Assembly: GCF_053078305.1 (NCBI RefSeq)
Contig: NZ_CP166879.1
Direction: 5' to 3' (one strand)
Length of the DNA stretch: 64,000 bases
A program made the position numbers and the translations under genes. Positions 5,613-52,290 of the stretch are shown piece by piece. The notes under the pieces are model-generated. The model was not told the DNA's origin and did not search any database. It saw only the letters and a list, made by a program, of their open reading frames with translations. Within the stretch, counting starts at the first letter, position 1. Each line of letters opens with the position of its first letter.

Positions 5613-7205
5613 TTATTTATTGGTGAGTACTACGTTCCATGGCAAGAGTTCATCAACTCGGTTGGAAGGCCATTCCGGCAGTACGCTCAGGATATGGCGC
5701 AGATACGCTTCCGGATCGATACCGTTCAGACGGCAGGTGCCGATCAGCCCGTACAACAGTGCTCCACGCTCGCCGCCGTGATCGCTGCCAAAGAACATAA
5801 AGTTTTTCTTTCCGAGACAGACTGCACGAAGCGCTCTTTCCGCAGCATTATTATCCGCCTCCGCCAGACCGTCATCACTGTAATAACAGAGGGCATCCCA
5901 CTGATTCAGTACATAGCTGAACGCTTCGCCCAGTCTGGATTTTTTCGACAGCGTACCATTCTTCTCCACCATCCATTCATGCAGCGACGTCAGTAACACT
6001 TTGCTTCGCTGCTGCCTGACGGAAAGACGCTCTGACTCCGGTAATCCCCGTATTTCATCCTCGATGGCGTACAGTTCACTGATTCGCTTCAGGGCTTCTT
6101 CTGCCTTCGCACTTTTGCTGCTGATGTATACATCGTGGATTTTTCGCCGGGCATGGGCCCAGCACGCAACTTCTGTCAGTGCACCACCTTCACGTTCTGC
6201 ACTGAACAACCTGTCGTAACCTGTGAACGCATCCGCCTGCAGGATACCCCGGAAGGGGCGGAGGTGTTGCTCCGGGTGTTTCCCCTGCCGGTTCGGCGAG
6301 TACGCGAACCAGACCGCTGGAGGAGATGACGAACCCACATTGCGATCATCCCGGACATACGTCCAGATACGCCCTGTTTTCGCCTTTTTCTGACCCGGTG
6401 CCAGTACCTTTACCGGTGTGTCATCAGTGTGAACCTTGCGGGTGTTCATTACATAACGGTACAGGGCATCATTCACCGGTGTCATTAACTGGCAGCACGC
6501 GTCAACCCAGTTGGAGAGTAAGGCCCGGCTCAGTTCGACACCCTTGCGGGCAAAGATTTCACTCTGACGATACAGTGGCAGATGTTCGCAGTATTTTCCC
6601 GTTAACACGCGGGCAAGTAATCCGGGGCCCGCGATACCACGCTCTATCGGGCGGGACGGCGCCGGTGCTTCAACGATGCAGTCACATTTTGTACAGGCTT
6701 TTTTTACCCGTTCTGTGCGGATCACTTTCAGGGCGCTGCTCACCAGTTCCAGTTGTTCTGCACTGACTTCCCCCAGATAATCCAGCTCACCGCCACACTC
6801 CGGGCAACAGCTTTCTTCAGACTCCAGACGGTGTATTTCACGGGGAAGGTGTGCCGGTAACGGACGACGATGGCGCGACTGTCGCAACTGGCGGGGAACC
6901 TGTGGATCGTCTTCCCGCCCACTGTAACGATCGCTGTCCTGTTCGCGTTGTTTCAGCAGGGCCTCAGCCTGTTCAACTTCACGACGCAGTTTTTCAGAAC
7001 GGGTACCGAACAGCATCCGGCGCAGTTTTTCTATCTGAGCCCGCAGATGTTCTATTTCCCGTTCATCTTCTTCGATCTTTTCTTCGGCACGTGCCAGTGC
7101 AGAGCGCAGGAAGGCCTCCGTCTCTTCAACCAGACTCAGTTGCTGGTCTTTCTGACGGAGCTGGCTTTCCAGTTCTGCAATGCGAATGAGGTATTTCTGA
7201 CTCAT
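5613..7205 (-). CDS. tnpC: IS66-family transposase (TnpC / Orf3)
   Basis: 530-aa ORF with N-terminal leucine-zipper-like coiled coil, CPECGGE zinc-finger motif and the conserved IS66 transposase core. Confidence 0.9.
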   Translation of the reverse strand: MSQKYLIRIAELESQLRQKDQQLSLVEETEAFLRSALARAEEKIEEDEREIEHLRAQIEKLRRMLFGTRSEKLRREVEQAEALLKQREQDSDRYSGREDDPQVPRQLRQSRHRRPLPAHLPREIHRLESEESCCPECGGELDYLGEVSAEQLELVSSALKVIRTERVKKACTKCDCIVEAPAPSRPIERGIAGPGLLARVLTGKYCEHLPLYRQSEIFARKGVELSRALLSNWVDACCQLMTPVNDALYRYVMNTRKVHTDDTPVKVLAPGQKKAKTGRIWTYVRDDRNVGSSSPPAVWFAYSPNRQGKHPEQHLRPFRGILQADAFTGYDRLFSAEREGGALTEVACWAHARRKIHDVYISSKSAKAEEALKRISELYAIEDEIRGLPESERLSVRQQRSKVLLTSLHEWMVEKNGTLSKKSRLGEAFSYVLNQWDALCYYSDDGLAEADNNAAERALRAVCLGKKNFMFFGSDHGGERGALLYGLIGTCRLNGIDPEAYLRHILSVLPEWPSNRVDELLPWNVVLTNK

Positions 7206-14030: not shown

Positions 14031-14951
14031 GTGAATGAAAACACACCCACTACCCCCACGCCACATGATGCGGCGTTCAGAGCGATGATGGAATGTCCCT
14101 CTGTTGCGAGGGATTTCCTGAAAGGCGCGTTGCCCCCGGAACAACTGAACCGGTGCGATATGAACACCCTGCAACTGGAGCCGACCACGTTTGTGGATCC
14201 GGATCTTCGCCAGTTTGCCTGTGATGTTCTGTGGAGTATGAAAACCACAGATGGCAGGGATGGATACATTTATACGCTGACAGAGCACCAGAGCAAGGCG
14301 GATAAGTATATGGCCCTGCGAATGATGCGCTATGTTCTGGCGGTGATACATCGCCACCTGAAAGCACATGCGTGTGCTCCCGTTGTGATACCGGTGCTTT
14401 TTTACCATGGTGTACCCAGTCCTTATCCATACAGCATGAACTGGCCTGACTGTCTGGATGATCCGGCGTTTGGTCGGGAGCTTTATGGAGAAGGCAGGCC
14501 ACCCAGGGTGATTGATGTCGGTCTTCTTGATGATGAGGGTATCCGTCGCTATAAGCAGATGGCTGCGCTGATGCTTATGATGAAGCTCCGGCAGAAGAAA
14601 GTGGATCTGATGGTTCATCTTGACTTTTTGTCACAGTTGATTCAGATACAGGAAACACACACTCAGGTGGTGACATTGTTTAACTATATGGTGAAAGAAT
14701 GTGATTCAGCTTCACCTGAATTTATACGGGCGATGGCAGAACGTCTGCCAAGACATGAGGATGATCTAATGACTATTGCTGAACGACTGGAACTGGCTGG
14801 TATCGAAAAGGGCCGCCAGGAGGAGAGAGAAAAGGCTCTTCAGGAGAATTACGCATCGGCCCGTCGCATGCAGCAGATGGGTATATCGTCAGAGAAAATC
14901 AAAGAAATACTGCAGTTCTCGGATGATGATTTGCGTAATGCTCTCCGGTAA
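14031..14951 (+). CDS. Rpn-family recombination-promoting nuclease / putative transposase (YhgA-like)
   Basis: N-terminal PHDAAFRAMM...ARDFL and YIYTLTEHQSKADKYMALRMMRY motifs typical of the YhgA/Rpn PD-(D/E)XK family; GTG start with AAGGAGG RBS. Confidence 0.75.
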   Translation: MNENTPTTPTPHDAAFRAMMECPSVARDFLKGALPPEQLNRCDMNTLQLEPTTFVDPDLRQFACDVLWSMKTTDGRDGYIYTLTEHQSKADKYMALRMMRYVLAVIHRHLKAHACAPVVIPVLFYHGVPSPYPYSMNWPDCLDDPAFGRELYGEGRPPRVIDVGLLDDEGIRRYKQMAALMLMMKLRQKKVDLMVHLDFLSQLIQIQETHTQVVTLFNYMVKECDSASPEFIRAMAERLPRHEDDLMTIAERLELAGIEKGRQEEREKALQENYASARRMQQMGISSEKIKEILQFSDDDLRNALR

Positions 14952-17205: not shown

Positions 17206-17864
17206 CGGTTCTGCTGATGGTGGCCTGCAGTGGTGTCTGTCGTGCTGCCGTTCAGAACGTACCGGACGGGTACGTGCGGGTGGCCCGTGCCCATGGTATT
17301 CCCGCAGAGCTTTTGTATGCCGTTTCCCTGACGGAAACGTCCATGTCTCCGGAAGCGATGTCCGGAGTACTGAAACAACGGCGTCGTGATTTTCGTCAGC
17401 CGGACGTGGCCCGCCCCTGGCCCTGGACAATAAATGTGGCAGGAAAAGGGTACCGTTATGCCACACGTCTGGAGGCCTGGCAGGCATTGCAGGTGTTTCT
17501 GAAACATTATCCGGCAAAACGTATTGATGTCGGGATAGCACAGGTCAATCTGGGCTGGAATGGACATCGTTTCCCGTCCACATGGGCGGCATTTGATCCT
17601 TACACCAGTCTGAATACGGCAGCGGTCATTCTGCAGGAATGCCGGCGTCGCCATCCGGTCAGCTGGCTGCAGGTGGCCGGGTGTTATCACCACCCGGCAG
17701 GTGGTGCGCCGGCCGCACGTTATACCGCCGTGGTCAGACGGCATCTTGCCCGGCTCCACCGGGATAATTTCCTGAATCCGTCTGATGTGCATGTGGCAGC
17801 GACCGCCATGCTGACACCATCCCCCCGTTATATCTGGACTGAACCACAGGAGGAGCTGAAATGA
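17184..17864 (+). CDS. lytic transglycosylase (SLT domain), conjugation-associated
   Basis: Signal peptide; SLT-domain-like core GIPAELLYAVSLTETS. Confidence 0.7.
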   Translation: MARGGILTVLLMVACSGVCRAAVQNVPDGYVRVARAHGIPAELLYAVSLTETSMSPEAMSGVLKQRRRDFRQPDVARPWPWTINVAGKGYRYATRLEAWQALQVFLKHYPAKRIDVGIAQVNLGWNGHRFPSTWAAFDPYTSLNTAAVILQECRRRHPVSWLQVAGCYHHPAGGAPAARYTAVVRRHLARLHRDNFLNPSDVHVAATAMLTPSPRYIWTEPQEELK

Positions 17865-18379
17865 AACGAGAAAGACTGTTTTATGTACTGAGTCTGCTGC
17901 TGTTCTGTACAACAGCTGGCGCAGAACTGAAAGTGATTGCAGACCTGGGCGGCAGGGATGCCAGCCCCTTTTTTGAGGCGATAAACCGGCAGCCACCGGT
18001 TCCCGCTTCAGTTGTGCCATCACCCTCTTTTCCGCAGGGAGAGGCGGCAATGTTACCGGTCAGTACGCCTGAAATGTCACCCGGAGAGGTTGTGGCGCGC
18101 CGGCTTCAGTTACCGGGCATCGGTGCACTTTTTCTTGTGGGCGATGATGCCCATTCCCGCACATGGCTGCAGATGAATGCAGCAGTACTCAGGGAGCGGA
18201 AGGCGGCGGGAATGGTAGTGAATGTGGCGGATGAGAGCAGTCTGCGCGTACTGCGTGAGCTGGCACCGGGGGTGGTGATGGTTCCGGCATCCGGTTCTGT
18301 ACTGGCCCGCAGGTTACAGATAAGTCATTACCCGGTGCTGATAACGGACAACGGCCTGTCACAGGTACCAGCACCATGA
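17861..18379 (+). CDS. periplasmic ICE transfer-region protein
   Basis: 172-aa ORF with signal peptide, 4-bp overlap with neighbours. Confidence 0.5.
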   Translation: MKRERLFYVLSLLLFCTTAGAELKVIADLGGRDASPFFEAINRQPPVPASVVPSPSFPQGEAAMLPVSTPEMSPGEVVARRLQLPGIGALFLVGDDAHSRTWLQMNAAVLRERKAAGMVVNVADESSLRVLRELAPGVVMVPASGSVLARRLQISHYPVLITDNGLSQVPAP

Positions 18380-18969
18380 TGCCGCTGTCTGCCACTTCTG
18401 CTGCGCTCTCTGCTTCTCCGGTACTGACAGCCTGCCTGGTTCTCAGCCTGCTGGCTGTTGTCCTGGGGCCGGCACTGTGGCGCAGCCGGCGAAAAAAAGC
18501 GTGTGTGAGAACACGCCGGCATCAGCGTTATCGTGCCACGGCCTCACGGGTAATGAAGCGGCTGAACGAATTGCAGGGCGATGCCCGGCGGCTGAAATAT
18601 CTGCGCAAAATCAGTCCGTATGTGTTTGAGGAACTGTTGCTGCTGGCTTTTGAGCAACAGGGGATGCCGGTTATCCGTAACCCCTCATACAGCGGCGATG
18701 GTGGTCTTGATGGTCAGGTGGTGATTAACGGTGAACGCTGGCTGATACAGGCTAAACGTTACGGAAGAACCATTCGTCCGGCACATATTGATGCTTTTGG
18801 CGAACTGCTGCGCCGGAAGGGATGCAGGGGCTTTTTTATCCATACGGGGCGTACGGGGAACATCAGCCGGGCACGGCTGACACTGTGGCCGGATATTGAG
18901 CTGATCAGTGGACAACGTCTGTTGCAACTGCTGAATGGCACCTTACTGAGTAATAAAGGAAGATCATGA
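18376..18969 (+). CDS. membrane-anchored restriction-endonuclease-like (Mrr-cat) domain protein
   Basis: N-terminal TM helix; C-terminal GDGGLDGQ...ERWLIQAKRY matches the PD-(D/E)XK Mrr catalytic-domain pattern. Confidence 0.55.
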   Translation: MMPLSATSAALSASPVLTACLVLSLLAVVLGPALWRSRRKKACVRTRRHQRYRATASRVMKRLNELQGDARRLKYLRKISPYVFEELLLLAFEQQGMPVIRNPSYSGDGGLDGQVVINGERWLIQAKRYGRTIRPAHIDAFGELLRRKGCRGFFIHTGRTGNISRARLTLWPDIELISGQRLLQLLNGTLLSNKGRS

Positions 18970-19448
18970 TTATGACACTGTACCGGTTTGTTATGCTGCT
19001 GCTCCGGCTTCTGATTGTCTGGCCGTCAATGCTGGCAGGATGTCTGGTAATGCTGTATGTCTGGAACAATCTGAGTGGTGGTGAGGCAGGCATGACACAG
19101 CGTTATGCGACGGAGTCATCCCGCTGGCGTGATGCGCCTGAAGGGCATGTGATGGTACAAAAATGTTCCTCCGTCATATCCGTCTCAGGTATGTATGTCG
19201 ATGAGCAGGAATGTCCGCGAACAGCGATTTCTTTCGGGGAGGCTGTTGCTGAAGATATTCGTGAACTGAAAATGCAGGCAGTGGTTCTGTTGCTGGGCGC
19301 TTTGTTTATGGAAGGTGTCTCGTCAGTCATTCTGTTTCGTGGTTGTGGTTCTGCAGCCGTATCCGGGGAAGGCAGGGGGGGCCCGGCTGTTATGCCGTGG
19401 CCTGACGGTATCGGTATCTCAAAAGTGCAGGAGAGAAGAGCTGAATGA
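18966..19448 (+). CDS. ICE membrane protein
   Basis: 160-aa ORF with N-terminal TM segments; overlapping stop/start with neighbours. Confidence 0.5.
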   Translation: MIMTLYRFVMLLLRLLIVWPSMLAGCLVMLYVWNNLSGGEAGMTQRYATESSRWRDAPEGHVMVQKCSSVISVSGMYVDEQECPRTAISFGEAVAEDIRELKMQAVVLLLGALFMEGVSSVILFRGCGSAAVSGEGRGGPAVMPWPDGIGISKVQERRAE

Positions 19449-20233
19449 AGGGGGCATTTACAGAGCGGATACAGGCGAATGCTCCGGCCTGGGCACATGA
19501 ACAACTGGTTGCATGGGATACCGCAGAGTTTGCGGCAATGTCGGATTTTATTACGGAACACTACTGGACGGGACAGGGCAGTATCAATGTGTACCGCATT
19601 GTGGGGACTGACCATCCACAGTATGCCGGAATGAGCTGGCTGGAGCTGCTGGAGCGTGGTGAACGCATGGACATCAATATCCCGTTACTTGAAAAGAATC
19701 CGGGATATTACACGCAGGCAGAGCAACAGCATGCCGGGATGGGTTTTGTCAGCACGGATGGCATTCACTGGTATGTCAGTGCTGACGGTAATCACCGCAG
19801 CTGTCTGGCCCGCTTTCTGTTCCACCTGCAGGGGGAGGGGCGCACACAGCTTCACAATGTGGCCCAGAGTATTTATCACACAGACCAGGCGTTCCGGTCT
19901 GCCTGTCGGGAAATTCACAACCTGGCAGAACCGTTGTCCCGGCATGATGTGTATCTTCGTCTGCAGATCCGGCGGCAGTGTGTTTCCCGCGAAGACCTGG
20001 CCTGCTGGAAAGTGGATCGTTTCAGAACAGAGGCGCAGTTGACAGTGGATGATGTGCATGCCGGCGGACATGACGGGCCACTGGTGTATAAGGCATTACT
20101 GCTGAATGCGGCAGACGCATGGCGGGAGGTGATGGTGTTACAGCGCAGGCTGGAGGCACTGTCAGCGTCACCGGAGAAAGCGTTGCCGCGCTCATGGTGG
20201 CGGCGTCTTTTACAGAGAGGTACCCGGTCATGA
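19445..20233 (+). CDS. hypothetical ICE protein
   Basis: 262-aa ORF; its stop overlaps the traD start (ATGA). Confidence 0.5.
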   Translation: MKGAFTERIQANAPAWAHEQLVAWDTAEFAAMSDFITEHYWTGQGSINVYRIVGTDHPQYAGMSWLELLERGERMDINIPLLEKNPGYYTQAEQQHAGMGFVSTDGIHWYVSADGNHRSCLARFLFHLQGEGRTQLHNVAQSIYHTDQAFRSACREIHNLAEPLSRHDVYLRLQIRRQCVSREDLACWKVDRFRTEAQLTVDDVHAGGHDGPLVYKALLLNAADAWREVMVLQRRLEALSASPEKALPRSWWRRLLQRGTRS

Positions 20234-22326
20234 GTAACCGTTATGTGATTGAGGCTCTGCTGCGTCCGGCTGTGGAACTGAATACCGCCGTGGTGGCAGC
20301 AACGGCGGCCGGTGTCTGTGTGACAGCGCCCTGGGCGGTGGCGCTCGCGCCTTCGGTCAGCTATGTCACAGCCGCCGGCTTTGGCGTTCTGGCAGTGGTC
20401 CGTTTCCGACAGGGGATGAAGATCATCCGTTACCGTCGCAATCTGCGCCGGCTGCCCCGTTATGTGATGAGTTCCCGGCAAATTCCGGTCAGCCGTCAGC
20501 GGCTGTTTCTGGGACGCGGCTTCCGCTGGACACAGAAGCACACCCAGCGCCTTCAGGACACGCTGCGACCGGAGGTTGCGCACTATCTTCAGCCGGGCAG
20601 TCTGTACCGGACAGCGCGCTGGCTTGAAATGAAAACGGAGCGCAGTCTTCCCTGGATTGGGCAGCTTCTTCGTCGTGACTCGCCGCTGAATCCCGTCCGT
20701 CCCCTGCCGCCGGTGGGAGGAAATCCTGCCCTGCATGGTATTGAGCCGGATGAGCAGGATGTGACGCTGGCACTGGGTGAACGTGTGGGGCACACCATTG
20801 TCTATGGCACCACCCGTGTCGGGAAAACCCGGCTGGCGGAGTTGCTGGTCACACAGGATATTCGTCGGGGAGATGTCACCATTGTCTTTGATCCCAAAGG
20901 GGATGCGGATCTGTTGCTGCGTGTCTGGGCTGAAGCACACCGTGCAGGCAGGGGCGATGAGCTTTATATCTTTCATCTGGGCTGGCCGGAAATCTCTGCG
21001 CGTTATAACGCCGTGGGGCGTTTTGGTCGTGTGTCGGAGGTGGCTTCCCGTGTGGCCGGTCAGTTATCCGGTGAAGGTAACAGTGCGGCCTTCCGTGAGT
21101 TTGCATGGCGGTTTGTCAACATTGTTGCCCGTGCACTGGTGGCACTGGGGGAGCGCCCAGATTACACGCTGATTATGCGTTATGTGAATAATATTGCCGA
21201 CCTTTATATCCGTTATGCTGGTAAGGTGATCAGCGAACAGATGCCGGAACTGGAAAACGCCATTCTGAATAACATGAATGTACTGGGGGAAGCGGATGTT
21301 CCCCGGACCATGCAGAACCAGCCGGATGCTGTGCGTATCTGGGCCATTGAGGTGGCTCTCAGCAGTGAAGCCGGAAAGAAACTCTATGATCCGATACTGG
21401 ATGGTCTGCGAAGCGCGGTACGTTATGATCGTACCTATTTTGACAAAATTGTGGCATCCCTGTTGCCGTTGCTGGAAAAACTGACCACAGGAAAGACGGC
21501 AGAACTGCTGGCACCTGACTACCTGGATATGAGCGATACCCGTCCCGTGTTTGACTGGGAGCAGGTGATACGTAAAAAGGCGGTGGTGTACATTGGTCTT
21601 GATGCGCTGAGTGACAGTGAGGTGGCCAGTGCCGTGGGTAACTCCATGTTTGCGGATCTGGTGAGTGTCGCCGGGCATATCTACAAACACGGAATGAATG
21701 CCGGTCTTCCGGGAGGGAATGGTACCAAAAATCCGGTTAACCTGCATTGTGATGAGTTTAATGAACTGATGGGTGATGAGTTCATTCCGTTAATCAACAA
21801 GGGAGGCGGTGCCGGTATGCAGGTGACGGCTTACACGCAGACCTCTTCTGATATTGAGGCCCGTACCGGTAGTGCTGCCAAAACGGCCCAGGTGCAGGGT
21901 AACTTTAATAACATGATTATGCTGCGGGTCAGGGAGAACCGGACGGCCGAGTTACTGACGACCCAGTTGTCCCAGGTGGAAATTTATACCAAAACGCTGG
22001 TTTCCGGCCATCAGGACACCGCAGATGTCACGACCGGCCAGGACTTCACATCCAGTACCCAGGATCGTGTTGGTACTGTGAAGGTGCCTTTGCTGGAGCC
22101 GGCAGATATCGTGACCCTGCCGAAAGGACAGGCCTTTGCTCTGCTGGAAGGGGGACAGTTGTGGAAAATCCGTATGCCCCTGCCTGCAACTGATGCAGAT
22201 GACGCGCTGATGCCGGAGAGTATTGCAAAAATTGCAGAGGCCATGCGGCGTAATTACCACACCGGAGAGGGATGGTGGAATGAGACTCCCTCCGTGAACA
22301 TGCCGGAAGGAGAGCAGAATGGCTGA
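20230..22326 (+). CDS. traD: type IV coupling protein TraD (ICE/PFGI-1 class)
   Basis: ORF track 20119..22326; preferred ATG 20230. Two N-terminal TM helices and Walker A GTTRVGKT. Confidence 0.85.
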   Translation: MSNRYVIEALLRPAVELNTAVVAATAAGVCVTAPWAVALAPSVSYVTAAGFGVLAVVRFRQGMKIIRYRRNLRRLPRYVMSSRQIPVSRQRLFLGRGFRWTQKHTQRLQDTLRPEVAHYLQPGSLYRTARWLEMKTERSLPWIGQLLRRDSPLNPVRPLPPVGGNPALHGIEPDEQDVTLALGERVGHTIVYGTTRVGKTRLAELLVTQDIRRGDVTIVFDPKGDADLLLRVWAEAHRAGRGDELYIFHLGWPEISARYNAVGRFGRVSEVASRVAGQLSGEGNSAAFREFAWRFVNIVARALVALGERPDYTLIMRYVNNIADLYIRYAGKVISEQMPELENAILNNMNVLGEADVPRTMQNQPDAVRIWAIEVALSSEAGKKLYDPILDGLRSAVRYDRTYFDKIVASLLPLLEKLTTGKTAELLAPDYLDMSDTRPVFDWEQVIRKKAVVYIGLDALSDSEVASAVGNSMFADLVSVAGHIYKHGMNAGLPGGNGTKNPVNLHCDEFNELMGDEFIPLINKGGGAGMQVTAYTQTSSDIEARTGSAAKTAQVQGNFNNMIMLRVRENRTAELLTTQLSQVEIYTKTLVSGHQDTADVTTGQDFTSSTQDRVGTVKVPLLEPADIVTLPKGQAFALLEGGQLWKIRMPLPATDADDALMPESIAKIAEAMRRNYHTGEGWWNETPSVNMPEGEQNG

Positions 22327-23080
22327 ACCCCGTCGTGAGGTGAACAGAGCAGCACAACCCTCTCCGCCACGTCAGCACGGACTGCTCTGGAATCTGTTGT
22401 GGGGCTGGCCGTGGATGCTGGTCGGGATCCTGTTTTCCTCCCTGCTGCTGAGCCTGCTGGTTGAGTATATCGGGATTGCTTTTTTCTGGCCGGAGCAGGG
22501 GGCAGCACACAGTGAGGCAGTGATGAAGACAGAACTGGGGTGGCTGTCTTCGGAATTCACCCGCAGTCTGCTGCTGTCGGCACCATCGGTAACGGTGACA
22601 GAATGGATAGCAACGGCGTATCAGTGGCTGTTTGTGGAAACAGGTTTTCTGTCGTGGCTGAAGCAGCAAAATGCCGGTGCCGTGGTGGGTAACAGTGTGT
22701 CACAGTACAGTGAGGATGTGGGGCGCTGGCTGAGCCATTATCTGTATGAGTACCTGATGGCCACAGTATATGTCACGGTGGTCACACTGATACGGGTGAC
22801 GATCCTGGTGTTGTCTGTTCCGCTGTTTGTGATGGTGATACTGATCGCGGTTGTGGAGGGACTGGGGCGTCGTGATCTGCGCCGGTATGGTGCTGCGTAT
22901 GAGTCCAGCTTTGTTTATCACCATGCAAAAAAGTCTATTAAACCGGCGATATATATTCCCTGCATTCTTTACCTGTCCTGGCCGACGTCGGTGTATCCGA
23001 ACCTGCTGATATGGCCGGCAGCCATGCTGCTGGGGGTGGCCATCACCGTGACCATGGCATCCTTCAAGAAATATTTATAA
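22319..23080 (+). CDS. ICE integral membrane protein
   Basis: 253-aa ORF with about four TM helices, overlapping traD stop. Confidence 0.6.
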   Translation: MAEPRREVNRAAQPSPPRQHGLLWNLLWGWPWMLVGILFSSLLLSLLVEYIGIAFFWPEQGAAHSEAVMKTELGWLSSEFTRSLLLSAPSVTVTEWIATAYQWLFVETGFLSWLKQQNAGAVVGNSVSQYSEDVGRWLSHYLYEYLMATVYVTVVTLIRVTILVLSVPLFVMVILIAVVEGLGRRDLRRYGAAYESSFVYHHAKKSIKPAIYIPCILYLSWPTSVYPNLLIWPAAMLLGVAITVTMASFKKYL

Positions 23081-43103: not shown

Positions 43104-43348
43104 TCAGGATCTGATGGAGGTTTTTTACGAGAATTAAACTTATCGATCAGATTAAAAACTATCGCTGCTAGTGTTATCGATGTACCTGCTATGCACCCAA
43201 ACACAATAACTCTTATCATTTGGTGGGTCGGGAAAAAAAAGAATCCTTTTGTTAGGTAAATAAATAAAGCTCCTCCCCCCATCAAAAGAAATCCACTGAT
43301 GATACAAAAGAGGCATGCATATATGAACAATACAATGTAAGCAATCAT
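43100..43348 (-). CDS. cdiI: CdiI immunity protein (small two-TM membrane protein)
   Basis: 82-aa ORF whose start overlaps the cdiA stop (ATGA); two hydrophobic helices. Confidence 0.65.
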   Translation of the reverse strand: MIAYIVLFIYACLFCIISGFLLMGGGALFIYLTKGFFFFPTHQMIRVIVFGCIAGTSITLAAIVFNLIDKFNSRKKPPSDPE

Positions 43349-46300
43349 TTCCCCTCCTCCTTCTTCGCGCTAGAAGAGAACTGATTATTACTACTTGCTT
43401 CTTTTATATATCCACCAAGAAATTCACTACCAAAAGATCCTGTCGCATCAAATATAAATCCCGGAAACTCTTTCCCAGTAACTGAGTTTACTATTCCGGG
43501 AGCATATACTCCAAATGCTCCACCCAATCCGGCCCCGGCAGCAGCCCCTCCAATAGAGCCTGTATTTGGACCATCGGTAAAGAATGCACCACCCATCGCA
43601 ATTCCGACGTTTTGTCCGACAGTTCTCCCCGGCGCAAGCATACCCGCAATGCCTGAACTGGCACTGCTTTTCCAGTCCCAGTTTTTGTTTTCATTACCTG
43701 GCTGGCTTAAATCAAACCACTGGTAACTTCCATTGGCTATCTCCGCGACGACTCCACCACTGACCATTTTACCGACCGAAGCAGCAGGCCCCAGATACCA
43801 TGCCCCGGCAATCATTACACCATCCTGATATCCATCCACGATCACTTTCGTGATATTGGTGCTGTCCGGCATATCACCTTTCGCTATCTTATCCAGTCCA
43901 GCCTGTGTTTGTTCCGGTGTCAGATTATTGTCCACCGCGTACTTGTTCCATGATGTAGCCGCAGCAGCATTGCTTTCAAAACCATCACCGAAGCTGAGCG
44001 CATTATTCTCAACCGTCGTCTTACCTGACTGTGCTCCGGCTACCGCTGAAGCTCCCGAATCTCCCACCAGACCACCGGCCAGGCCGGCAGCAACCGTTGC
44101 CAGTGTCGAGACCGTCTGCTTCTCTGTCCCGCTCAGTTCACTCACCGGCTTACCGTACATCTGTGTGGCTATCATTCCCACCACCTCGCCGGTGGCTGCG
44201 CCTGCGGCACCAGCCAGAGCATTCTTACCCTGTGCCAGAGACAGGGCTGCATTCACTACTGCATGAGCTGCCACACGTCCCGCACCGTCCGGGGTGGTCT
44301 GTTTGATAATTTCAGCAATATACGGTGCTGCACCACCTGCCAGGGCTGCACTCAGATTACCGCCGGCCAGCCCCTGTACTGCTGCCGTTGCGGCCTGTAT
44401 CGCCTGCTGGTATTTGCCTCCCGTTCCAAAACCTGAGGCCGCCATACCGTTATTGTAGGCCCGCTGCGCCACATCCTGTTCCGTGAACGGTTTTCCTGCT
44501 GCCTCAAGCTCCTCACGGGCCTGATTCAGTGCTGCCGGGTCCCGCTTCGCTTTCTCACCAGCTATCTGGCCTTCCGTTCTGGCAATATCTGCCACCTGGT
44601 TACCAATCTCACCAATGAGCTGCGCCTGCTGCAGTCGCTGCTGCTCTTTTTCCCTGTCAAAGATGGGGGACAGCGTCTGGTTTGCATGTGCTGCGTCACG
44701 GTTCAGGTCTGCCACATCCTGTTTCTGGCTCTGCGTATCCCGGATGGTGATATTCCCGGCAGACACAGCCGACTGAGTGGTGCTTTCTGCATGGCCTTCA
44801 TGATTTGCACCAACCAGCAGATTGTTGGCCATATTTCCCGCGAACTGGCCACCGATGCTGCCGCCAGTGCTGATACCCACGCTCTGGTGTTCAACTTTGT
44901 AATCAGCACGATTTTCGATATCACGGAAGCCCAGTGTACCGGTATCCAGCCGGTTTTTATCTGCCGTTGCCGTGGACGCAATCACCGCACCGTTCAGTTG
45001 CGTATGCTGTCCGGTGGTGACATCAAACCCGCCCCTGCCGGCAAAAATCCCCGTCTGCTCCTGCACACTGTCATAGTTACTGTGCATTTTATCCCGGCTG
45101 AGGCTCACACTCGCCGAACCGCTCATGGACCCGAAAGTGAAGCTGCCTCCGGCACTGGCATTCTGCTGCTTACTGTCATAACGGTCACTGTCCTGCTCAC
45201 TGGTCAGTGTCAGATGACGACCGGCATCCACTTTCACCGTTTCACCGCCGGCCTGCACGCCGGTAAGCGTGGTGTCCCGCCCGCTGATAATGGTCAGGCG
45301 GTTTCCCGCATCCACCGTGGTTTCTGTATGGGTGGTACCGTTGCCTTTTTCACTGCCCTTACCCTGGTTTGCGCTGGCTGAAACACTGATACCCCAGCCT
45401 CCGGCCCCCACACCGATACCGACACCCACACTGCCGCCACTGGATGAGTTCTTTCCTTCCAGCTTTGACGTGTTTTCTGCTGATACCAGATTCACGTCAC
45501 GGTTTGCCTGCAGCAGAACGTTGTTCCCTGCCTTTATCTGACTGCCCTGTATCGTCAGGTCACCATCCACGTCCTTCACGCCGGAGCCGGTGGCCTGAAT
45601 ACTGAGGTTATTACCTGCGGTCAGGGCGCTGTTCTTCGCCACCGTCTGCTCTGACTGCTGTTCTGATTTCGAAGACTGGCTGCCGTAAGAGAGGCTGATA
45701 CCCACGGCATTGTTATTCTCTTTCTGGTTGCCCTGTGCTTCTGCCAGTCGTCCGGCCTGCACGGCCTGAGCCCCCGAGAGCGCGGCCTTCACCCCCTGCA
45801 GGGCTTCAAGCCGGCTGTTTCCGGCAGATTTCGCCGCCTGCACGGTCTCCACCGTCGTGTTCAGGGCGCTGCCCACTGTGCCGGACAGGGCAAGCGTCAG
45901 ACCGGAGGTTTTCTGCTCCACCGAATGCGTCTGCACATGCCGGTCTGTGACGGCGCTAATGCTGACCTCCTTACCACTGAGTGCCATGTCCCTGCCGGCA
46001 ATCAGGTCAGCACTGTTGGCGCTCAGCCGGTTACCTGCCTGAAGGGAAACATCACCGTGAACACTCCCCACCGTGCTGCCTTTCTGTGTGCTGTCTGTTG
46101 CGGTGTCCGTGACTTTCAGACTCTGGCTGCCCACACTGAATCCCACACCTCCGGAGCTCATCAGCCCGGATTTTTTCTCCTGTTTCAGGTGTGTTTCACG
46201 GTTGCTTTCTGTCAGCGTGCCGATACTCAGGTCATTTCCGGCAGCCAGGGAGACACGGTTATCCCCGGCCACACTGCTGCCCGTGACGTTCAGATTATGT

Positions 46301-49300
46301 CCGGCACTGATACTGACCGTATCCCCGTTCAGTTCACTGCCCGTCATGGTCCGGCGGTCAGTGACATCATGCGTGGTTGTGGTGGTTTTCGATAACATCC
46401 CGCTGCTGCCGGTCACTTTATGGTATTCATCCAGCGAGCGGGTATTCTGTGCACCGGTCAGCGTCACGTCATGACCTGCCATCAGGGCCAGGCCTTTCTG
46501 AGCTGACAGCGATGCCGCCTGTGACGTCATATCCCGTCCGGCGGTCAGCGTGACATCACCGTTACCGGCAAGCGTGCTGCCCGTACTCTGTGTGACGCCC
46601 TGCGACAGACGATTATTTTTATCCCAGATAATATTGTCCTGCGCGGAAGTGGTCACTGTGGAAAGCGTCATATCCCTGCCCGCACTGAGTTGCGTCAGGC
46701 TGTCCTTACCCTGATTCACCACCGTTGCAGCCGTCAGATTCATATCCCGTCCGGCCTGCAGCACCAGTCTTCCCTGGTCGTTCTGCACATACACGCCGGC
46801 CACACTGTCGATACTGGTACGTTCAAAATGGTTCTGTCCGGCGTCGCGCTGTGCCGTACGGGTGGTGGTGGTCAGACTGATATCCCGTCCGGCCATCGCC
46901 AGCAGGCTGTCCGTGGCCTGCAGCAGCCCGCCGGTACTGTTAATATCCGTCCGGGCCGTCAGGCTGACATTTGCTCCCTGAATGGAGCCGGCCTGGTTGT
47001 GAATGTTTTCTGCACTGAGCTGCACGGTCTGCTTCCCGGCCAGTTTACCGCTGTTAAACAGGTCACCATCCAGCTTCATCACCATGTCCCTGCCGGCAAT
47101 CAGCGCACCGGCACTGTTCACATCACCGGGTTTTACACGGGCATACACCTGAGGTACCTGAACTGTCTGCGTGCTGCCGTCCGGCAGTGTCACCGTGGTG
47201 TTAACCAGCCAGACAATATCCCCGGTCAGTAACGCCATCTGCTCAGCCGTCAGCGCCACACCCGGTTTCAGGTTGTATTGCTTACCAAATGCAATACCCG
47301 CATCCATTAATGCCTTAAACTGCTCTTCATCACTGCCGTATCTGTCCAGGTACCGTTGCCCGGTCAGAGCGACAACCTGCTCTCGAATCAGACGCTGCTC
47401 GTAAAAACCGTCTCCCAGACGTTTGAGCATGTTATCCCCGTTCTGAGAAAACGCCTTCTGCATGTAATCACTGCCCAGCCACATCTTCTGGTTCGTAAAA
47501 CGCGGGTCCGTTTCAACCAGATATGGCACATTCACTGCCGGATTTGTTTTAAACAGACTGCTGTCCGGCAGACGGGTATCCGGCCCGGCAACATGGATAC
47601 TGCCCTGAGGTGTGCTGACTTCAAACTGCTGCCCCGGCAACAGAATGACCGGTTCACCGGCAGACACCACCGGGCGAAGCGGTATCCGGTCAGTAGCGGC
47701 TACTGCCGCATCCACATTTCCGGCCTGTCCTGTCTGTACATCCGTTCCCTGTGGCTTCAGAGGAGAAAGCGTGACCTGGCTGCCCTGAATCTGTCCGTGG
47801 CTGGTGAGCTCTCCCGGCTTCAGCGTAATGCTCTGAATTACAGTGGGCGGAGTGTACTGAGAGGTTTTCTCCCCCTGCTTATCCTTTCCTTTTTTCCTGA
47901 TACGGTAATAATACGTGGATGTTCCTGAGTCCGTAACATGCCGCTCGCCACTGACACTGACATTTTCCACGCTTCCTGACGGAATGGTCAGCAGGCCGCC
48001 TGCAACAACCTGACTCTTATCATTAAGCAGTTTGTCTGCCACAATCGTCATGCCGGCACCGGACAGAATTTTTCCCGGGTCGGAGTCTTTTACCCGGGTT
48101 TCTTCCACGGTACGGGTGTAATCATACTGCGTGAATTTATCTCTGGCGCCTTCCGGTGTATGCAGTTTTTTCAGTGAGTTACTGGAATCGTTATCCACAT
48201 AAACGCCCGGTTCACCGGCGCTCCAGCGTTTATCTGAGCCGCTGAGCTGATACTCAGTCACCTTTTCCGTGGAAACCACCACGCGCTCCGTGGTGAAATG
48301 GTCATTGACGTTATTGATTTGTCCGGCACTCAGTACCAGATATCCGGCGGCTTCAATAGTGGCACTGTGATTATTCAGTACACCGGCTTTCCCCGTGGCG
48401 GCACCATTCGCATCCAGCATGCCACCAGTATGCATATCACCTGCACTGTAAATCAGGCTGTGCGTCCGGTTATTCAGGGTCTGTACCCCTAAGTCCACAC
48501 GCTCACGCCCGGCCAGCGTCGCCGCCACGCCATTTTCTTCCAGATTATTAAATGTGGCAGCGCTGACACCAACAGCATCGCCGTAGATTCGCCCGGTACC
48601 GGAATTCGTCAGGGTGTTCGCCTGAAGATGCGTATATTTCCCGTCAATCAGCCCACGGTTCAGCAGTGTGTCCGTCACGTTAAGCCAGGTCTGCCCGGCA
48701 CTGATTTCACCTTTCTCTGTGTTTTCAAGGCGGATGCTGTTCAGGTCAAGCCGGCTGCCTGCCAGCAGGCTGCCGGTATTAGAGACATCGCCATTAACGG
48801 AAAGCGTAAGGTTTCCGTTCGCAATAGTCTGACCACTGTTGCTGAACGTTGTGTTACTTTTCAGCGTCATATCGCCCAGCGAAAGCAGTTTCCCGTCACC
48901 ACCGAGCTGACCGGCATCCACAGATACTGACTGCCCGGCCTTAACCACGCCGTCACGGTTCGAAAACGCCAGCTGACGGCCACTGACAGACAATGTCGCG
49001 CCGGAAGAGAGGACGCCGTCATTATTACTGAGCGTCCTGTCTGCCATAACCGTAAGCGCCCTGTCTGCCAGAATACTGCCCTCCTGGTTATCAAGGTCCT
49101 GCGTCGTGATGTGTATTGTCTGCGCTTCCAGCCCCTGACCGGTATTCTGCGTGTGGCGATTGATAAACTGCAGGGCGTTCAGCGTAATGGCGGAACCACT
49201 GCGAATCAGACCAGAGACGTTGTCCACAACGCCCCGTACACTGTTGAGCAACATGTCGCCCACAGACTGTATTTGTCCGTGGCTGTTCTGCAGACCTCCC

Positions 49301-52290
49301 GTATGCAGACGGAGTTCACCTTCACTGACCAGCCGGCCCCCCTCACGGTTATCCAGCGAGGTGGTGCTCAGGTCAGCTGTCGTTTTCGCCCCCACGGTCC
49401 CGCCCCGGTTATCCATTGCTCCGGTACTGACAGTCAGTTCCTGCAGGCTGTTCAGCGTACCGCGTCTGTTATCCAGCGTCTGGCCTGCGGTATTAATGCT
49501 GATACCCCTCCCCTGAATAAGACCGGACTGATTGTTCAGCGCCTGGCTGTTCCAGCCGAGCAGACCGTTTGCCACCATCTGACCGGATGTATTGTTAACC
49601 ACGCCTGCAGTCAGGGACAGAGCATCTCCCGACAAAAGCACACCGGCAGTGCTGTCCAGTGTGCCGGCATTCAGCGTCATCGGACCCTGACTGATAACCC
49701 CGCCCCGGTCACCACTATTACGGTTACTCAGTGTGTCAGCACGGAGATTCAGCGATGCACCGCTCTGTATCAGGCCGCCGGCATCGTTGATGATATCCGT
49801 CGAGGAAAGTGTCAGTGACTGCTGTGCCACCAGTCTGCCGCCCTGATTATCAAACCGTGTGACATCCAGCCTGCTGTTACCGTTGCTGACCACCGTCCCC
49901 TGCTGATTTTCCAGCACACTCAGGTGCGTATTCAGGTCCCCGCCGGCGGCAAGCGCCCCTTCCTGATTACTGACATCACCACCACTCAGCAACATATCCG
50001 TCCCGGCCTTCAGTGCGCCTTTCTGGTTCATCAGCGTACCTGACGATATCTGTAATGACGTCTGACTCCCCAGCACGCCCTGACGGTTATCGAGCGTTCC
50101 GGCGTTCAGGGTCATATCCTTCTGACCCGCCATAAATCCCTGCTGGTTATTCAGCATACCGGCCCGCACTGTCAGGGTACCGGCGCTGCTGATACCACCC
50201 CGTGTTTTCGTGTTCCGGTTACTGAGTACCCCGTCCTGTACATCCAGCGTCATGTCACTGCCGGACTGAATCAGACCATCATCAGAGACCAGTTCGCTGC
50301 CTGACACAGACAGCGTTTTCTGTGAAAGCAGTCTGCCGGACGTATTATCCAGCGCACCATCCAGCGTCACAGACAGCCCGTCAGCCACCACCGTACCCTG
50401 GTGGTTATTCAGATTCCCTGCCGAAATATCCAGCCTGCCGGCGGACTCCATTCGTCCCTCAGTATTGCTGACAGCCTGCTGTGTTTTTATCCTGCCCGTT
50501 CCGGCAGCAGCTGAAATCAGTCCGTTGTCGTTATTCAGCGCCTGTGTATTAATCAGGATGTCACGGCTGGCAAGCAGACGTCCCTGCTGGTTATCCACGG
50601 CGCCGGTTGTCCTCACCTGCAGACTGCCTGACTGCGCCGCCTGCACTTTCCCCCTGCGATTATCAAGGCTCAGTGCATCCAGACGCACCGCGCCATTTGC
50701 CGCAAACAGCCCTTCCCGGTTATCCACGCTTCCCGGCAGACTCAGCGAAAAATCCCCTGTTCCCGTCTGAGTCAGACTGCCTTTACGATTTGACAGGCTT
50801 TGTGCCGATATCTGCAGTGTGTCGGCATTTATCGTGCCACCATTATTGCTGAAGTGCCCGACAGTCCGGGCGGAAAGCGTACCGGCACTCAGTTGCGCAT
50901 TCTGTGTGGACAGATTTCCACTGGTTGCATCCAGCTCAGTATGTTGTCCCTGTATCCGGCTGTTGCTTAAATCCAGCCCCTGCCCCTTCAGTTGCATGTC
51001 CCCACCGGACAGAACCTGTCCGTGTGCCGCCAGTTCGCCGGTGGTACTGACAGTCAGGTTGCCCGCTGCCGCCAGACGTCCGTCATCTTTCACCCCGGCG
51101 GCCAGCAGACTCCGCTCACCGCCGGTCAGACGCGCTGTCTGAATCCGGGTGTTGCGACGTGATGCCACAGAGCCTGTATGGGTGAAGACACCATCACTCT
51201 GTATCTGCGTATCCTGCCCCGCATAAACAGAACCACTGTTATGCAGCTCCCGGGTTGTCGCCAGATGCACATCCGTTTTCGCACTGATACTGCCACTGTT
51301 TTCAATACGTCCGTCAGCCGTCAGGGTAACCGCCCCTGCCTGTGCACCAATATGACCGGCGTTACGAACACCCACCCCCGTTTCCGTACCGACAAGGCGA
51401 ATTTTTCCGGCATACATTCCGCCAAGACTGGCCACATCCAGTGCCATCTGAGGCTGTGAAGAGACATCACCGGTCTTTTTCTCAATCTGCCCGTGCGCGA
51501 TATCCACATTGTTACGTCCTGTGGTCACTTTCAGATCCTGCGCCCAGATACCCGCATTAATCTTCACAGACCGGGCAATGATATCGGTATAATCCGTGCG
51601 CGAGGCATCCATCCCTTTGCCCGTAACCTGAATCTCACCACGTTCAACACTGAATCCGGTCAGACTGCCGTTTTTCATCTGCGGCTGCCCCGTGGTCAGC
51701 GTGGCCCGGTTCGCATTAATAAAACCGCACCCGTCGCAACTGATGCCGGCCGGGTTCGCAATCACCACCTGCGCCTTTTTACCGGCAACCTCAACAAAAC
51801 CGTTCAACTGGCTGGGATTGCGACTGTTCACTTCATTAAGAATGATTCTGGCCTCTCCCTTAGCCAGCCACGGGTTCCCGGCCACCATGCCACCCAGTTG
51901 AGTCTGCACATTGTTATGGGCATTATTCAGAATGACGCCCTGGTTACCGACGTCGAACTGGCTGTATGCGTTATGTGAAACCCCGCCGGCAGAAGGCGTC
52001 TGAATATTCACCTGCGGAATGCCGCTGGCCGTCTGCGTAATCGTGGGCTGCTGATACCCTGGTGCGCCATGGTCTGCGACAATGCCTGCAGCACTGACAG
52101 AATGCACCATCCCCGAAGCCAGCCACAAAGAGAATGCAAGCGGCGTGACACGGCAGATACGTTGCCTGTGTGGATATCCTGTGCGGGAGGACAGTGATGT
52201 ACCGGCGCGACCGGAACGGGCAATATCTGCCACCACCATCAGCATTCCCCGGGCTTTGTTAAAAATAATGCGGTAACAATTTCTGTTCAT
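43345..52290 (-). CDS. cdiA: CdiA, contact-dependent growth inhibition exoprotein (TpsA/filamentous-haemagglutinin family)
   Basis: 2981-aa ORF; extended TPS signal peptide MNRNCYRIIFNKARGMLMVV, TPS domain with NPAGISCDGCGFIN, long haemagglutinin-type repeats, VENN motif at 44002-44013, then a 218-aa Gly-rich hydrophobic C-terminal domain (43348-44001). Confidence 0.9.
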   Translation of the reverse strand: MNRNCYRIIFNKARGMLMVVADIARSGRAGTSLSSRTGYPHRQRICRVTPLAFSLWLASGMVHSVSAAGIVADHGAPGYQQPTITQTASGIPQVNIQTPSAGGVSHNAYSQFDVGNQGVILNNAHNNVQTQLGGMVAGNPWLAKGEARIILNEVNSRNPSQLNGFVEVAGKKAQVVIANPAGISCDGCGFINANRATLTTGQPQMKNGSLTGFSVERGEIQVTGKGMDASRTDYTDIIARSVKINAGIWAQDLKVTTGRNNVDIAHGQIEKKTGDVSSQPQMALDVASLGGMYAGKIRLVGTETGVGVRNAGHIGAQAGAVTLTADGRIENSGSISAKTDVHLATTRELHNSGSVYAGQDTQIQSDGVFTHTGSVASRRNTRIQTARLTGGERSLLAAGVKDDGRLAAAGNLTVSTTGELAAHGQVLSGGDMQLKGQGLDLSNSRIQGQHTELDATSGNLSTQNAQLSAGTLSARTVGHFSNNGGTINADTLQISAQSLSNRKGSLTQTGTGDFSLSLPGSVDNREGLFAANGAVRLDALSLDNRRGKVQAAQSGSLQVRTTGAVDNQQGRLLASRDILINTQALNNDNGLISAAAGTGRIKTQQAVSNTEGRMESAGRLDISAGNLNNHQGTVVADGLSVTLDGALDNTSGRLLSQKTLSVSGSELVSDDGLIQSGSDMTLDVQDGVLSNRNTKTRGGISSAGTLTVRAGMLNNQQGFMAGQKDMTLNAGTLDNRQGVLGSQTSLQISSGTLMNQKGALKAGTDMLLSGGDVSNQEGALAAGGDLNTHLSVLENQQGTVVSNGNSRLDVTRFDNQGGRLVAQQSLTLSSTDIINDAGGLIQSGASLNLRADTLSNRNSGDRGGVISQGPMTLNAGTLDSTAGVLLSGDALSLTAGVVNNTSGQMVANGLLGWNSQALNNQSGLIQGRGISINTAGQTLDNRRGTLNSLQELTVSTGAMDNRGGTVGAKTTADLSTTSLDNREGGRLVSEGELRLHTGGLQNSHGQIQSVGDMLLNSVRGVVDNVSGLIRSGSAITLNALQFINRHTQNTGQGLEAQTIHITTQDLDNQEGSILADRALTVMADRTLSNNDGVLSSGATLSVSGRQLAFSNRDGVVKAGQSVSVDAGQLGGDGKLLSLGDMTLKSNTTFSNSGQTIANGNLTLSVNGDVSNTGSLLAGSRLDLNSIRLENTEKGEISAGQTWLNVTDTLLNRGLIDGKYTHLQANTLTNSGTGRIYGDAVGVSAATFNNLEENGVAATLAGRERVDLGVQTLNNRTHSLIYSAGDMHTGGMLDANGAATGKAGVLNNHSATIEAAGYLVLSAGQINNVNDHFTTERVVVSTEKVTEYQLSGSDKRWSAGEPGVYVDNDSSNSLKKLHTPEGARDKFTQYDYTRTVEETRVKDSDPGKILSGAGMTIVADKLLNDKSQVVAGGLLTIPSGSVENVSVSGERHVTDSGTSTYYYRIRKKGKDKQGEKTSQYTPPTVIQSITLKPGELTSHGQIQGSQVTLSPLKPQGTDVQTGQAGNVDAAVAATDRIPLRPVVSAGEPVILLPGQQFEVSTPQGSIHVAGPDTRLPDSSLFKTNPAVNVPYLVETDPRFTNQKMWLGSDYMQKAFSQNGDNMLKRLGDGFYEQRLIREQVVALTGQRYLDRYGSDEEQFKALMDAGIAFGKQYNLKPGVALTAEQMALLTGDIVWLVNTTVTLPDGSTQTVQVPQVYARVKPGDVNSAGALIAGRDMVMKLDGDLFNSGKLAGKQTVQLSAENIHNQAGSIQGANVSLTARTDINSTGGLLQATDSLLAMAGRDISLTTTTRTAQRDAGQNHFERTSIDSVAGVYVQNDQGRLVLQAGRDMNLTAATVVNQGKDSLTQLSAGRDMTLSTVTTSAQDNIIWDKNNRLSQGVTQSTGSTLAGNGDVTLTAGRDMTSQAASLSAQKGLALMAGHDVTLTGAQNTRSLDEYHKVTGSSGMLSKTTTTTHDVTDRRTMTGSELNGDTVSISAGHNLNVTGSSVAGDNRVSLAAGNDLSIGTLTESNRETHLKQEKKSGLMSSGGVGFSVGSQSLKVTDTATDSTQKGSTVGSVHGDVSLQAGNRLSANSADLIAGRDMALSGKEVSISAVTDRHVQTHSVEQKTSGLTLALSGTVGSALNTTVETVQAAKSAGNSRLEALQGVKAALSGAQAVQAGRLAEAQGNQKENNNAVGISLSYGSQSSKSEQQSEQTVAKNSALTAGNNLSIQATGSGVKDVDGDLTIQGSQIKAGNNVLLQANRDVNLVSAENTSKLEGKNSSSGGSVGVGIGVGAGGWGISVSASANQGKGSEKGNGTTHTETTVDAGNRLTIISGRDTTLTGVQAGGETVKVDAGRHLTLTSEQDSDRYDSKQQNASAGGSFTFGSMSGSASVSLSRDKMHSNYDSVQEQTGIFAGRGGFDVTTGQHTQLNGAVIASTATADKNRLDTGTLGFRDIENRADYKVEHQSVGISTGGSIGGQFAGNMANNLLVGANHEGHAESTTQSAVSAGNITIRDTQSQKQDVADLNRDAAHANQTLSPIFDREKEQQRLQQAQLIGEIGNQVADIARTEGQIAGEKAKRDPAALNQAREELEAAGKPFTEQDVAQRAYNNGMAASGFGTGGKYQQAIQAATAAVQGLAGGNLSAALAGGAAPYIAEIIKQTTPDGAGRVAAHAVVNAALSLAQGKNALAGAAGAATGEVVGMIATQMYGKPVSELSGTEKQTVSTLATVAAGLAGGLVGDSGASAVAGAQSGKTTVENNALSFGDGFESNAAAATSWNKYAVDNNLTPEQTQAGLDKIAKGDMPDSTNITKVIVDGYQDGVMIAGAWYLGPAASVGKMVSGGVVAEIANGSYQWFDLSQPGNENKNWDWKSSASSGIAGMLAPGRTVGQNVGIAMGGAFFTDGPNTGSIGGAAAGAGLGGAFGVYAPGIVNSVTGKEFPGFIFDATGSFGSEFLGGYIKEASSNNQFSSSAKKEEGK

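Follow-up and report, generated by a model that had tools for sequence, protein, structure and literature searches.

The closest relatives of the protein described here are two gene products of conjugative plasmids, encoded by mrr of the IncN group (N3, R46, and pKM101) and by orf16 of pOXA-48 (IncL/M). The closest characterized proteins are E. coli Mrr by sequence, through a shared catalytic domain only, the FokI cleavage domain by structure, and SNIPE, a membrane-tethered nuclease of a different fold, by logic. The protein is encoded among the conjugation genes of an integrating conjugative element (ICE) in a 64,000-nucleotide stretch (hereafter, the window) of contig NZ_CP166879.1, RefSeq assembly GCF_053078305.1. 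Here a known nuclease domain takes on a membrane-tethered form that is distinct and conserved. Proteins built this way make up a large family, whose gene is common in the backbone of conjugative elements and whose specific association with conjugation was previously unremarked. We found only annotation-level mentions of the family, and no paper on its architecture or its link to coupling proteins appeared in the searchable literature, which is incomplete.

Judged by sequence, IncN mrr and pOXA-48 orf16 are both members of this family. They share with the protein in the window the transmembrane (TM) helix, an RRHxR stalk, and the motifs YLRKIDPFVFEELLL, YTGDGGIDG, LIQAKRY, and HTGKTG, with 47–51% identity over the nuclease domain, and they too are carried on conjugative elements. 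They differ in lying away from the gene for the type IV coupling protein (T4CP), mrr in the order korB-orf-kikA-orf-mrr next to EcoRII and orf16 in the order XRE-orf16-lipoprotein next to resD/parAB. Both are known by annotation, and the sole functional datum is transposon sequencing (Tn-seq) of pOXA-48, in which the input library and the transconjugant library both gave “NE” for orf16 (log2FC 0.71, adjusted p 0.25). With CRISPR interference on the same plasmid, orf16 was outside the seven genes with fitness effects, and the authors’ label for it, “Host defense,” comes from annotation alone. The pOXA-48 homolog is dispensable for maintenance and transfer, which argues against a requirement for transfer. 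In the supplementary gene table both orf16 and orf15, the XRE gene adjoining it, are non-essential. The essential XRE regulator orf20 was considered as a controller of the homolog and rejected, the homolog being orf16, five genes from orf19/orf20. A small open reading frame (ORF) of 68 amino acids (aa) that follows IncN mrr resembles the 82-aa product of pOXA-48 orf18 (BLASTP E 6e-6; the pair comes from loci L090, 9974–10222, and L091, 9560–9766), and the resemblance suggests that the IncN and pOXA-48 groups have a nuclease-plus-small-ORF module in common.

With E. coli Mrr, our protein has in common the Mrr_cat catalytic domain and the E...D...QxK variant of the PD-(D/E)XK motif, an assignment reportedly made for Mrr by Bujnicki and Rychlewski in 2001; it is smaller, has a TM helix and stalk instead of the N-terminal winged-helix recognition domain, and lies in a conjugation context. 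The FokI cleavage domain, the top Foldseek match of the modeled structure (E 1.3e-3, probability 1.00, but weak, with a TM-score of 0.45 on the query), is also a non-specific PD-(D/E)XK module lacking a recognition part. FokI takes its specificity from a fused recognition domain, and its cleavage requires dimerization, whereas the fused part here is a membrane anchor. Nuc, a phospholipase-D-family nuclease of pKM101, pCTX-M3, and pOXA-48 that co-occurs with the Mrr-like gene in the last of these, is similarly common on conjugative plasmids and dispensable for transfer, but it has another fold and is not anchored in the inner membrane; it is secreted, not cytoplasmic. The fertility-inhibition proteins Osa, PifC, and FipA are comparable as plasmid-encoded accessory proteins acting at a rival T4CP, and Osa is said to be a DNase, as attributed to Maindola and coworkers in 2014. 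Their folds are unrelated, and they are described as recent, fast-moving acquisitions, in contrast to the stable co-inheritance of the present nuclease with its ICE. SNIPE has the same arrangement of an N-out single-pass TM helix and a cytoplasmic nuclease, which for our protein is a prediction from hydropathy, charge, and an AlphaFold2 (AF2) model; it cleaves phage DNA during injection, its tether is thought to block self-cleavage, and without its TM helix it is toxic (bioRxiv 10.1101/2025.11.03.685801). However, SNIPE has a GIY-YIG nuclease and a DUF4041 domain that binds DNA and the tape measure protein, neither of which Pfam finds here, and it shows no sequence or fold kinship with our protein and is unlinked to conjugation genes.

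Protein Architecture and Family Conservation

The gene is present exactly as claimed in an earlier note made from the letters of the window, both in the ORF list and in PGAP annotation, and encodes 197 aa. In E. coli chromosomes 99.7% identical over the region, its product carries the RefSeq name “restriction endonuclease” (WP_000982739.1). The profile search proposed in that note as a check bore out the predicted nuclease domain, with Pfam Mrr_cat (PF04471) matching aa 76–186 across profile positions 1–115 of 115 (E 1.3e-17, 64.4 bits against a cut-off of 21). The predicted D...QxK residues could likewise be read in the DNA as D112...Q125-A-K127, with E85 as the helix glutamate. An N-terminal TM helix, also part of the earlier claim, is supported at aa 14–35 by hydrophobicity (Kyte-Doolittle 19-mer peak of 2.5), by a charge bias (0 positive charges N-terminal to the segment and RSRRKKACVRTRRHQRYR C-terminal to it), and by the AF2 model. 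By the positive-inside rule, these flanking charges point to an N-terminus in the periplasm and a nuclease domain in the cytoplasm. The AF2 model, for which 37 homologs were used, has a mean pLDDT of 93.8. One long helix (aa 15–65) makes up the TM segment and the basic stalk, and after it comes an alpha-beta-beta-beta-alpha-beta core, which is the restriction-endonuclease-like fold. The gene is thus predicted to encode a single-pass inner-membrane protein in which a short periplasmic N-terminus leads into a TM helix and a basic helical stalk, with the nuclease domain and its intact active site in the cytoplasm.

The best Foldseek matches of the model in the PDB are all PD-(D/E)XK nucleases (the FokI cleavage domain, Cdn1, Hjc, Ecl18kI, N.BspD6I, Can2, and the Avs4 nuclease), with weak E-values of ∼1e-3. 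A sequence search of the PDB returned nothing, and no NCBIfam family matched. Pfam detects Mrr_cat alone, with neither Mrr_N nor any other DNA-recognition domain, and aa 1–75 are taken up by the TM and stalk helix. Against the inactive-endonuclease family NA-iREase1 the protein scored below threshold (E 0.0048, 17.3 bits; cut-off 27), and it has kept its catalytic residues. No full-length system model of PADLOC-DB matched; partial, domain-level matches were obtained to PDC-S02 (E 1.2e-7, over the C-terminal 147 of 390 profile positions), LmuA (E 0.021), and ZorD (E 0.038).

A natural in-frame fusion of the nuclease to DUF2859, the protein encoded immediately upstream, occurs in a 340-aa E. coli protein (P0002, four contigs) and apparently arose by a short deletion between two “PVL” motifs. 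Its layout of periplasmic domain, TM helix, and cytoplasmic nuclease is consistent with the N-out topology predicted above.

An exhaustive HMMER search recovered 1,214 representative clusters of the family at E < 1e-3, 620 of them at E < 1e-10. The earlier note had called the arrangement unusual, which, taken as rarity, is wrong given these 1,214 clusters and the status of the gene as a common backbone component. Nearly all of the best 148 representatives are 170–230 aa long (median 192 aa), and a hydrophobic 19-mer scoring ≥1.6 precedes the domain in 113 of the 144 with enough N-terminal sequence; averaged over the family, the 20 residues that follow the hydrophobic segment carry a net charge of +6.9, against −0.5 before it. 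Residue conservation was counted over 149 sequences, made up of the query and the 148 best representatives. E85 and D112 are each kept in 148 of these and Q125 and K127 each in 147, at an overall identity within the family of only 35–76%. Selection acts on the active site, and the family is therefore not a degenerate structural fold; the possibility raised in the earlier note, that the domain is a non-catalytic structural module in homologs, is not what these residues indicate. Several motifs recur from Enterobacterales to Bacteroidota, namely YLRKIxPxVFEELLL, Y(S/T)GDGGxDG, LIQAKRY, HTG(R/K)TG, and the basic RRHxR...A.RV stalk, the last of which is conserved in ICE, IncN, IncL/M, Sphingomonad, Xanthomonas, Bacteroidota, and Micavibrio members.

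Association With Conjugation Genes

Chromosomal islands in 17 complete E. coli genomes match the region at 99.7% identity, and PGAP annotates them as an ICE of the SPI-7/PFGI-1 class. Signature genes of the SPI-7/PFGI-1/ICEclc-class (MPF_G) transfer module are present (TIGR03759, PFL_4695/DUF2859, TIGR03754 TraD, TIGR03747, and others; NCBIfam and PGAP), and the local gene order is pilL2, hypothetical, TIGR03759, SLT transglycosylase, DUF2859/PFL_4695, nuclease, a 160-aa ORF, a 262-aa ORF, traD, and TIGR03747/DUF4400. Co-transcription with genes of the type IV secretion system (T4SS), as proposed in the earlier note, fits the evidence of the DNA. From DUF2859 to traD, with the nuclease and the two following ORFs between them, every gene overlaps the next by an ATGA start/stop; no convincing promoter or terminator was found on the + strand within this stretch, the match counts being those of shuffled sequence; and the GC and GC3 of the gene are like those of its neighbors. 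We therefore conclude that the nuclease is expressed as part of the transfer operon.

Synteny was scored with phmmer and Pfam in 80 loci from one-genome-per-species contigs plus metagenomic loci. A conjugation marker lay within 10 kb of the nuclease gene in 69 of 84 loci, and a T4CP gene within 3.5 kb in 56 of 84. The order DUF2859-nuclease-TraD was found in all 31 Enterobacterales loci (Erwinia, Serratia, Pantoea, Pectobacterium, Brenneria, Morganella, Xenorhabdus, Hafnia, and others), in many of which the nuclease stop overlaps the traD start, the 160- and 262-aa ORFs being occasional extras. The gene is also present in two Vibrionales/Alteromonadales loci; in Photobacterium and Shewanella it is directly 5′ of TraD, with PcfJ-like or HATPase-like ORFs between DUF2859 and the nuclease. 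Other lineages pair the nuclease with other coupling proteins. In 24 Sphingomonadales loci it follows a TrwB-type T4CP and a TrwC relaxase, in a Crocinitomix (Bacteroidota) locus its start is overlapped by the T4CP stop, and in a Micavibrio locus it overlaps the T4CP start. A marine TARA Oceans contig (locus L092, 9001–11742) encodes a 913-aa protein in which Mrr_cat (aa 70–179) is fused to a VirD4-type T4CP (aa 391–799), at the end of a virB4-virB11 operon and followed by a UvrD-like helicase; this fusion occurs on two contigs only, and a search for further nuclease-T4CP fusions found none. Elsewhere the gene lies beside NikA/relaxase, ArdC, KorB, or KfrA. ArdC homologs stand within 5 kb of it in nine unrelated loci, and, ArdC being a conflict gene, their proximity suggests a precedent for a conflict role.

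Among plasmids, 2,591 of 72,556 records carry a homolog, and 78% of those are typed as conjugative; a published figure puts the conjugative share among plasmids overall at about one quarter. No homolog was present in any of 50,697 phage genomes.

Within the ICE lineage, the nuclease behaves like its neighbors in the T4SS operon. Its pairwise identities across 28 ICE loci correlate with those of TraD (r = 0.84) and DUF2859 (r = 0.90), which rules out a recently acquired cargo gene, and its median identity to the window (58%) equals that of T4SS accessory genes (54–63%). It is a conserved accessory gene, co-inherited and translationally coupled with the transfer genes in this lineage. MPF_G T4SSs do not all have it as a core component: ICEclc lacks it, with DUF2859 (orf71178) abutting iceD4, as does ICEHin1056/ICEHpa1, in which the gene after Tfc4 is Tfc5, which is TraD. 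A search for a conserved partner gene 3′ of the nuclease found none. The downstream ORFs are unrelated across contexts and encode a two-TM protein in the window, a lipoprotein in pOXA-48, a secreted SLT-like protein in Sphingomonads, and in IncN a small helix-turn-helix (HTH)-like protein.

Possible Roles of the Nuclease

The reading that we favor, and hold tentatively, is an accessory nuclease at the cytoplasmic mouth of the conjugation channel that serves conflict rather than the element’s own transfer. The protein would sit beside the coupling protein and cut duplex or branched DNA reaching the channel mouth without sequence specificity, and its membrane tether would hold it off the nucleoid, for which SNIPE is an experimental precedent. 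Its purpose would be to destroy foreign DNA, whether from rival conjugative elements or pilus-dependent phages, that enters a cell while the conjugation apparatus is on; a step in the element’s own transfer is a less likely purpose. We favor conflict because homologs are dispensable for transfer, related ICEs do without the gene (ICEclc and ICEHin1056, with DUF2859 directly beside TraD, still transfer), and the domain is destructive and lacks specificity. Some plasmid factors are known to target rival coupling proteins. In a bolder form, which we regard as unlikely, the family would be a previously unrecognized conjugation component, a “gatekeeper” nuclease docked on the coupling protein that destroys foreign nucleic acid making use of, or coming near, an open channel. 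It is equally doubtful that its targets would comprise rival plasmids, retro-transfer, and pilus-dependent phages, as a conjugation-coupled immunity which, by analogy, would follow SNIPE-like logic with a different nuclease and be tied to the T4SS. The earlier note had raised DNA processing at the membrane, defense, and anti-defense as candidate roles; for the last of these no support was found in this analysis.

Several observations weigh against an accessory conflict nuclease at the channel. Its predicted localization at the T4CP derives from gene order, translational coupling, and a single fusion on two contigs, and the IncN and IncL/M copies do not adjoin a T4CP gene. Stable co-inheritance as a backbone gene is unlike the reported fast turnover of fertility-inhibition genes and unlike typical defense cargo, and no known defense family in PADLOC matches the nuclease beyond the shared domain. 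Expression solely with the T4SS operon would make for a poor constitutive defense, and a nuclease beside its own relaxosome would need a means of sparing self-DNA, none of which is evident.

A role in the element’s own transfer would be that of a donor-side DNA-processing (Dtr) enzyme that works with the T4CP and relaxase and cuts duplex or branched intermediates or clears stalled substrates. Such an enzyme would fit the recurrent operon-sharing with T4CP and relaxase genes, the translational coupling, the T4CP fusion, the divergence of the nuclease at the same rate as the T4SS genes, and the Hjc-type resolvases among the fold matches, and deletions of several genuine T4SS accessory genes of ICEclc are likewise mild. 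We nonetheless think this improbable, and give no better chance to the expectation that it would raise transfer efficiency in natural conditions or in particular hosts, given that the pOXA-48 homolog is dispensable for transfer, that ICEclc and ICEHin1056 have the same T4SS type and no such gene, and that the IncN and IncL/M copies lie outside the Dtr genes. To our knowledge, none of the known relaxase pathways requires a second, non-specific nuclease. Much the same low likelihood attaches to a generic, SNIPE-like tethered defense that cuts any injected DNA, mainly that of phages, with the vicinity of traD as only a permissive insertion slot. The topology and logic are as in SNIPE, the DUF2859-TraD junction holds unrelated ORFs in different lineages, PDC-S02 of PADLOC is weakly matched (E 1.2e-7), and pOXA-48 orf16 bears its annotation-derived “Host defense” label. 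Chance, however, is a hard explanation for adjacency to at least four unrelated T4CP types plus a fusion. The gene is translationally embedded in the transfer operon without a promoter of its own, its inheritance is stable rather than shuffled, it lacks a sensor or partner domain such as the DUF4041 of SNIPE, and no phage genome carries a homolog even though prophages often carry defense genes.

The remaining alternatives are less likely still. An addiction or abortive toxin, kept harmless by its membrane location until loss of the element or an attack on the cell, when release or over-expression would let it degrade the chromosome, would be in keeping with the expected toxicity of an untethered non-specific nuclease (compare SNIPE without its TM helix) and with the XRE-type or small HTH genes that flank the IncL/M and IncN copies. 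We consider it very unlikely, since no conserved antitoxin or partner gene was found across contexts, transposon insertions in orf16 and the adjoining orf15 of pOXA-48 are both neutral, and the essential regulator orf20 does not adjoin orf16. A structural or adaptor subunit of the T4SS/T4CP complex that keeps the nuclease fold without catalysis could be read into the sub-threshold NA-iREase1 match, but four catalytic residues nearly invariant at the low overall identity of the family indicate selection on catalysis and make this highly improbable. That the gene is ICE cargo encoding a modification-dependent (type IV) restriction enzyme of the classical Mrr type is scarcely credible, despite the Pfam Mrr_cat domain and the names “restriction endonuclease” in RefSeq and “mrr” on IncN maps. 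The N-terminal 75 residues are TM helix and stalk rather than Mrr_N or another recognition domain, the surrounding genes are those of conjugation and not of restriction loci, and Mrr is larger, the present protein reaching about two-thirds of its size.

Antibiotic resistance travels mainly on conjugative plasmids and ICEs. The gene is present on several of the most important ones, namely pOXA-48, IncN carbapenemase plasmids, and SPI-7-type islands of Salmonella and E. coli, and it is conserved with an active site under selection, yet its sole label is an inherited “restriction endonuclease” annotation. If the nuclease does act at the coupling protein, it would add a new layer of control over DNA passing the conjugation gate, with consequences for competition between plasmids, for phage therapy that uses pilus-dependent phages, and for the ways in which cells avoid self-damage by non-specific nucleases.

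Neighboring Genes and Other Features of the Element

Positions of the nuclease gene, its parts, and the adjoining genes of the transfer operon are collected in Table 1.

Table 1. Nuclease gene, protein features, and operon neighbors, in window coordinates.
Feature	Position	Strand	Basis and remarks
DUF2859/PFL_4695-family ICE protein, upstream gene	17861..18379	+	TIGR03765 E 4e-39, Pfam DUF2859 E 2e-49; stop overlaps nuclease start (ATGA)
Nuclease gene, 197-aa membrane-anchored Mrr_cat nuclease-like protein	18376..18969 (stop codon included)	+	ORF list; same ORF by PGAP in identical E. coli ICEs; Pfam
Single TM helix, aa 14–35; N-terminus periplasmic and rest cytoplasmic (predicted)	18415..18480	+	Hydropathy, charge, AF2, natural DUF2859 fusion
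Basic cytoplasmic stalk helix, aa 36–65, RRHxR...A.RV motif	18481..18570	+	AF2 helix 15–65, motif conservation
Mrr_cat (PD-(D/E)XK) nuclease domain, aa 76–186	18601..18933	+	Pfam PF04471, Foldseek
Catalytic residues E85, D112, Q125, K127	18628..18756	+	Codons read in DNA (E85 gag 18628–18630; D112 gat 18709–18711; Q125 cag 18748–18750; K127 aaa 18754–18756); family conservation
Variable 160-aa two-TM ORF	18966..19448	+	Overlaps nuclease stop
Variable 262-aa ORF, DGNHR motif with invariant G-N-H-R	19445..20233	+	ORF list
traD, T4CP	20230..22326	+	TIGR03754, 1091.8 bits; PGAP start position
TIGR03747/DUF4400 ICE membrane protein, next operon gene	22319..23080	+	Pfam DUF4400 E 3e-69, PGAP

The junction between DUF2859 and TraD (window 18380–20229; compare loci L055 and L076) is a variable slot whose extra ORFs differ by lineage, among them a PcfJ-like 554-aa protein in Photobacterium and a HATPase_c_3 839-aa protein in Shewanella. 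In the window this slot also holds two variable ORFs. Homologs of the 160-aa product occur in only 4 of the 31 other enterobacterial loci (L014, L022, L025, and L026), and it has a weak, sub-threshold match to TraP (E 0.0038). For the 262-aa product, with only 32 homolog clusters, there was no Pfam or NCBIfam match and no significant fold match, and a ParB/Srx-like identity for this DGNHR-motif protein was not demonstrable by profile and fold comparisons.

A tRNA scan of the window found none, and the attachment end of the ICE is therefore placed outside it. Between ssb and pilL2 lies a gene for an Rpn/YhgA-like (Transposase_31) recombination-promoting nuclease (14031–14951, + strand), and an IS66-family transposase gene is located at 5613–7205 on the − strand. 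The ICE also carries as cargo a contact-dependent inhibition locus (43345–54582, − strand) that is made up of a ShlB/FhaC-type transporter (52843–54582), an HlyC-like acyltransferase (52306–52833), and a 2,981-aa CdiA-like protein (43345–52290) with TPS, hemagglutinin-repeat, and PT-VENN pre-toxin domains; this segment is absent from an otherwise 99.7%-identical reference strain. At the far end of the ICE, 61959–63035 on the + strand encodes an anti-restriction-type protein with ArdC-N and MPTase-PolyVal (zincin) domains.

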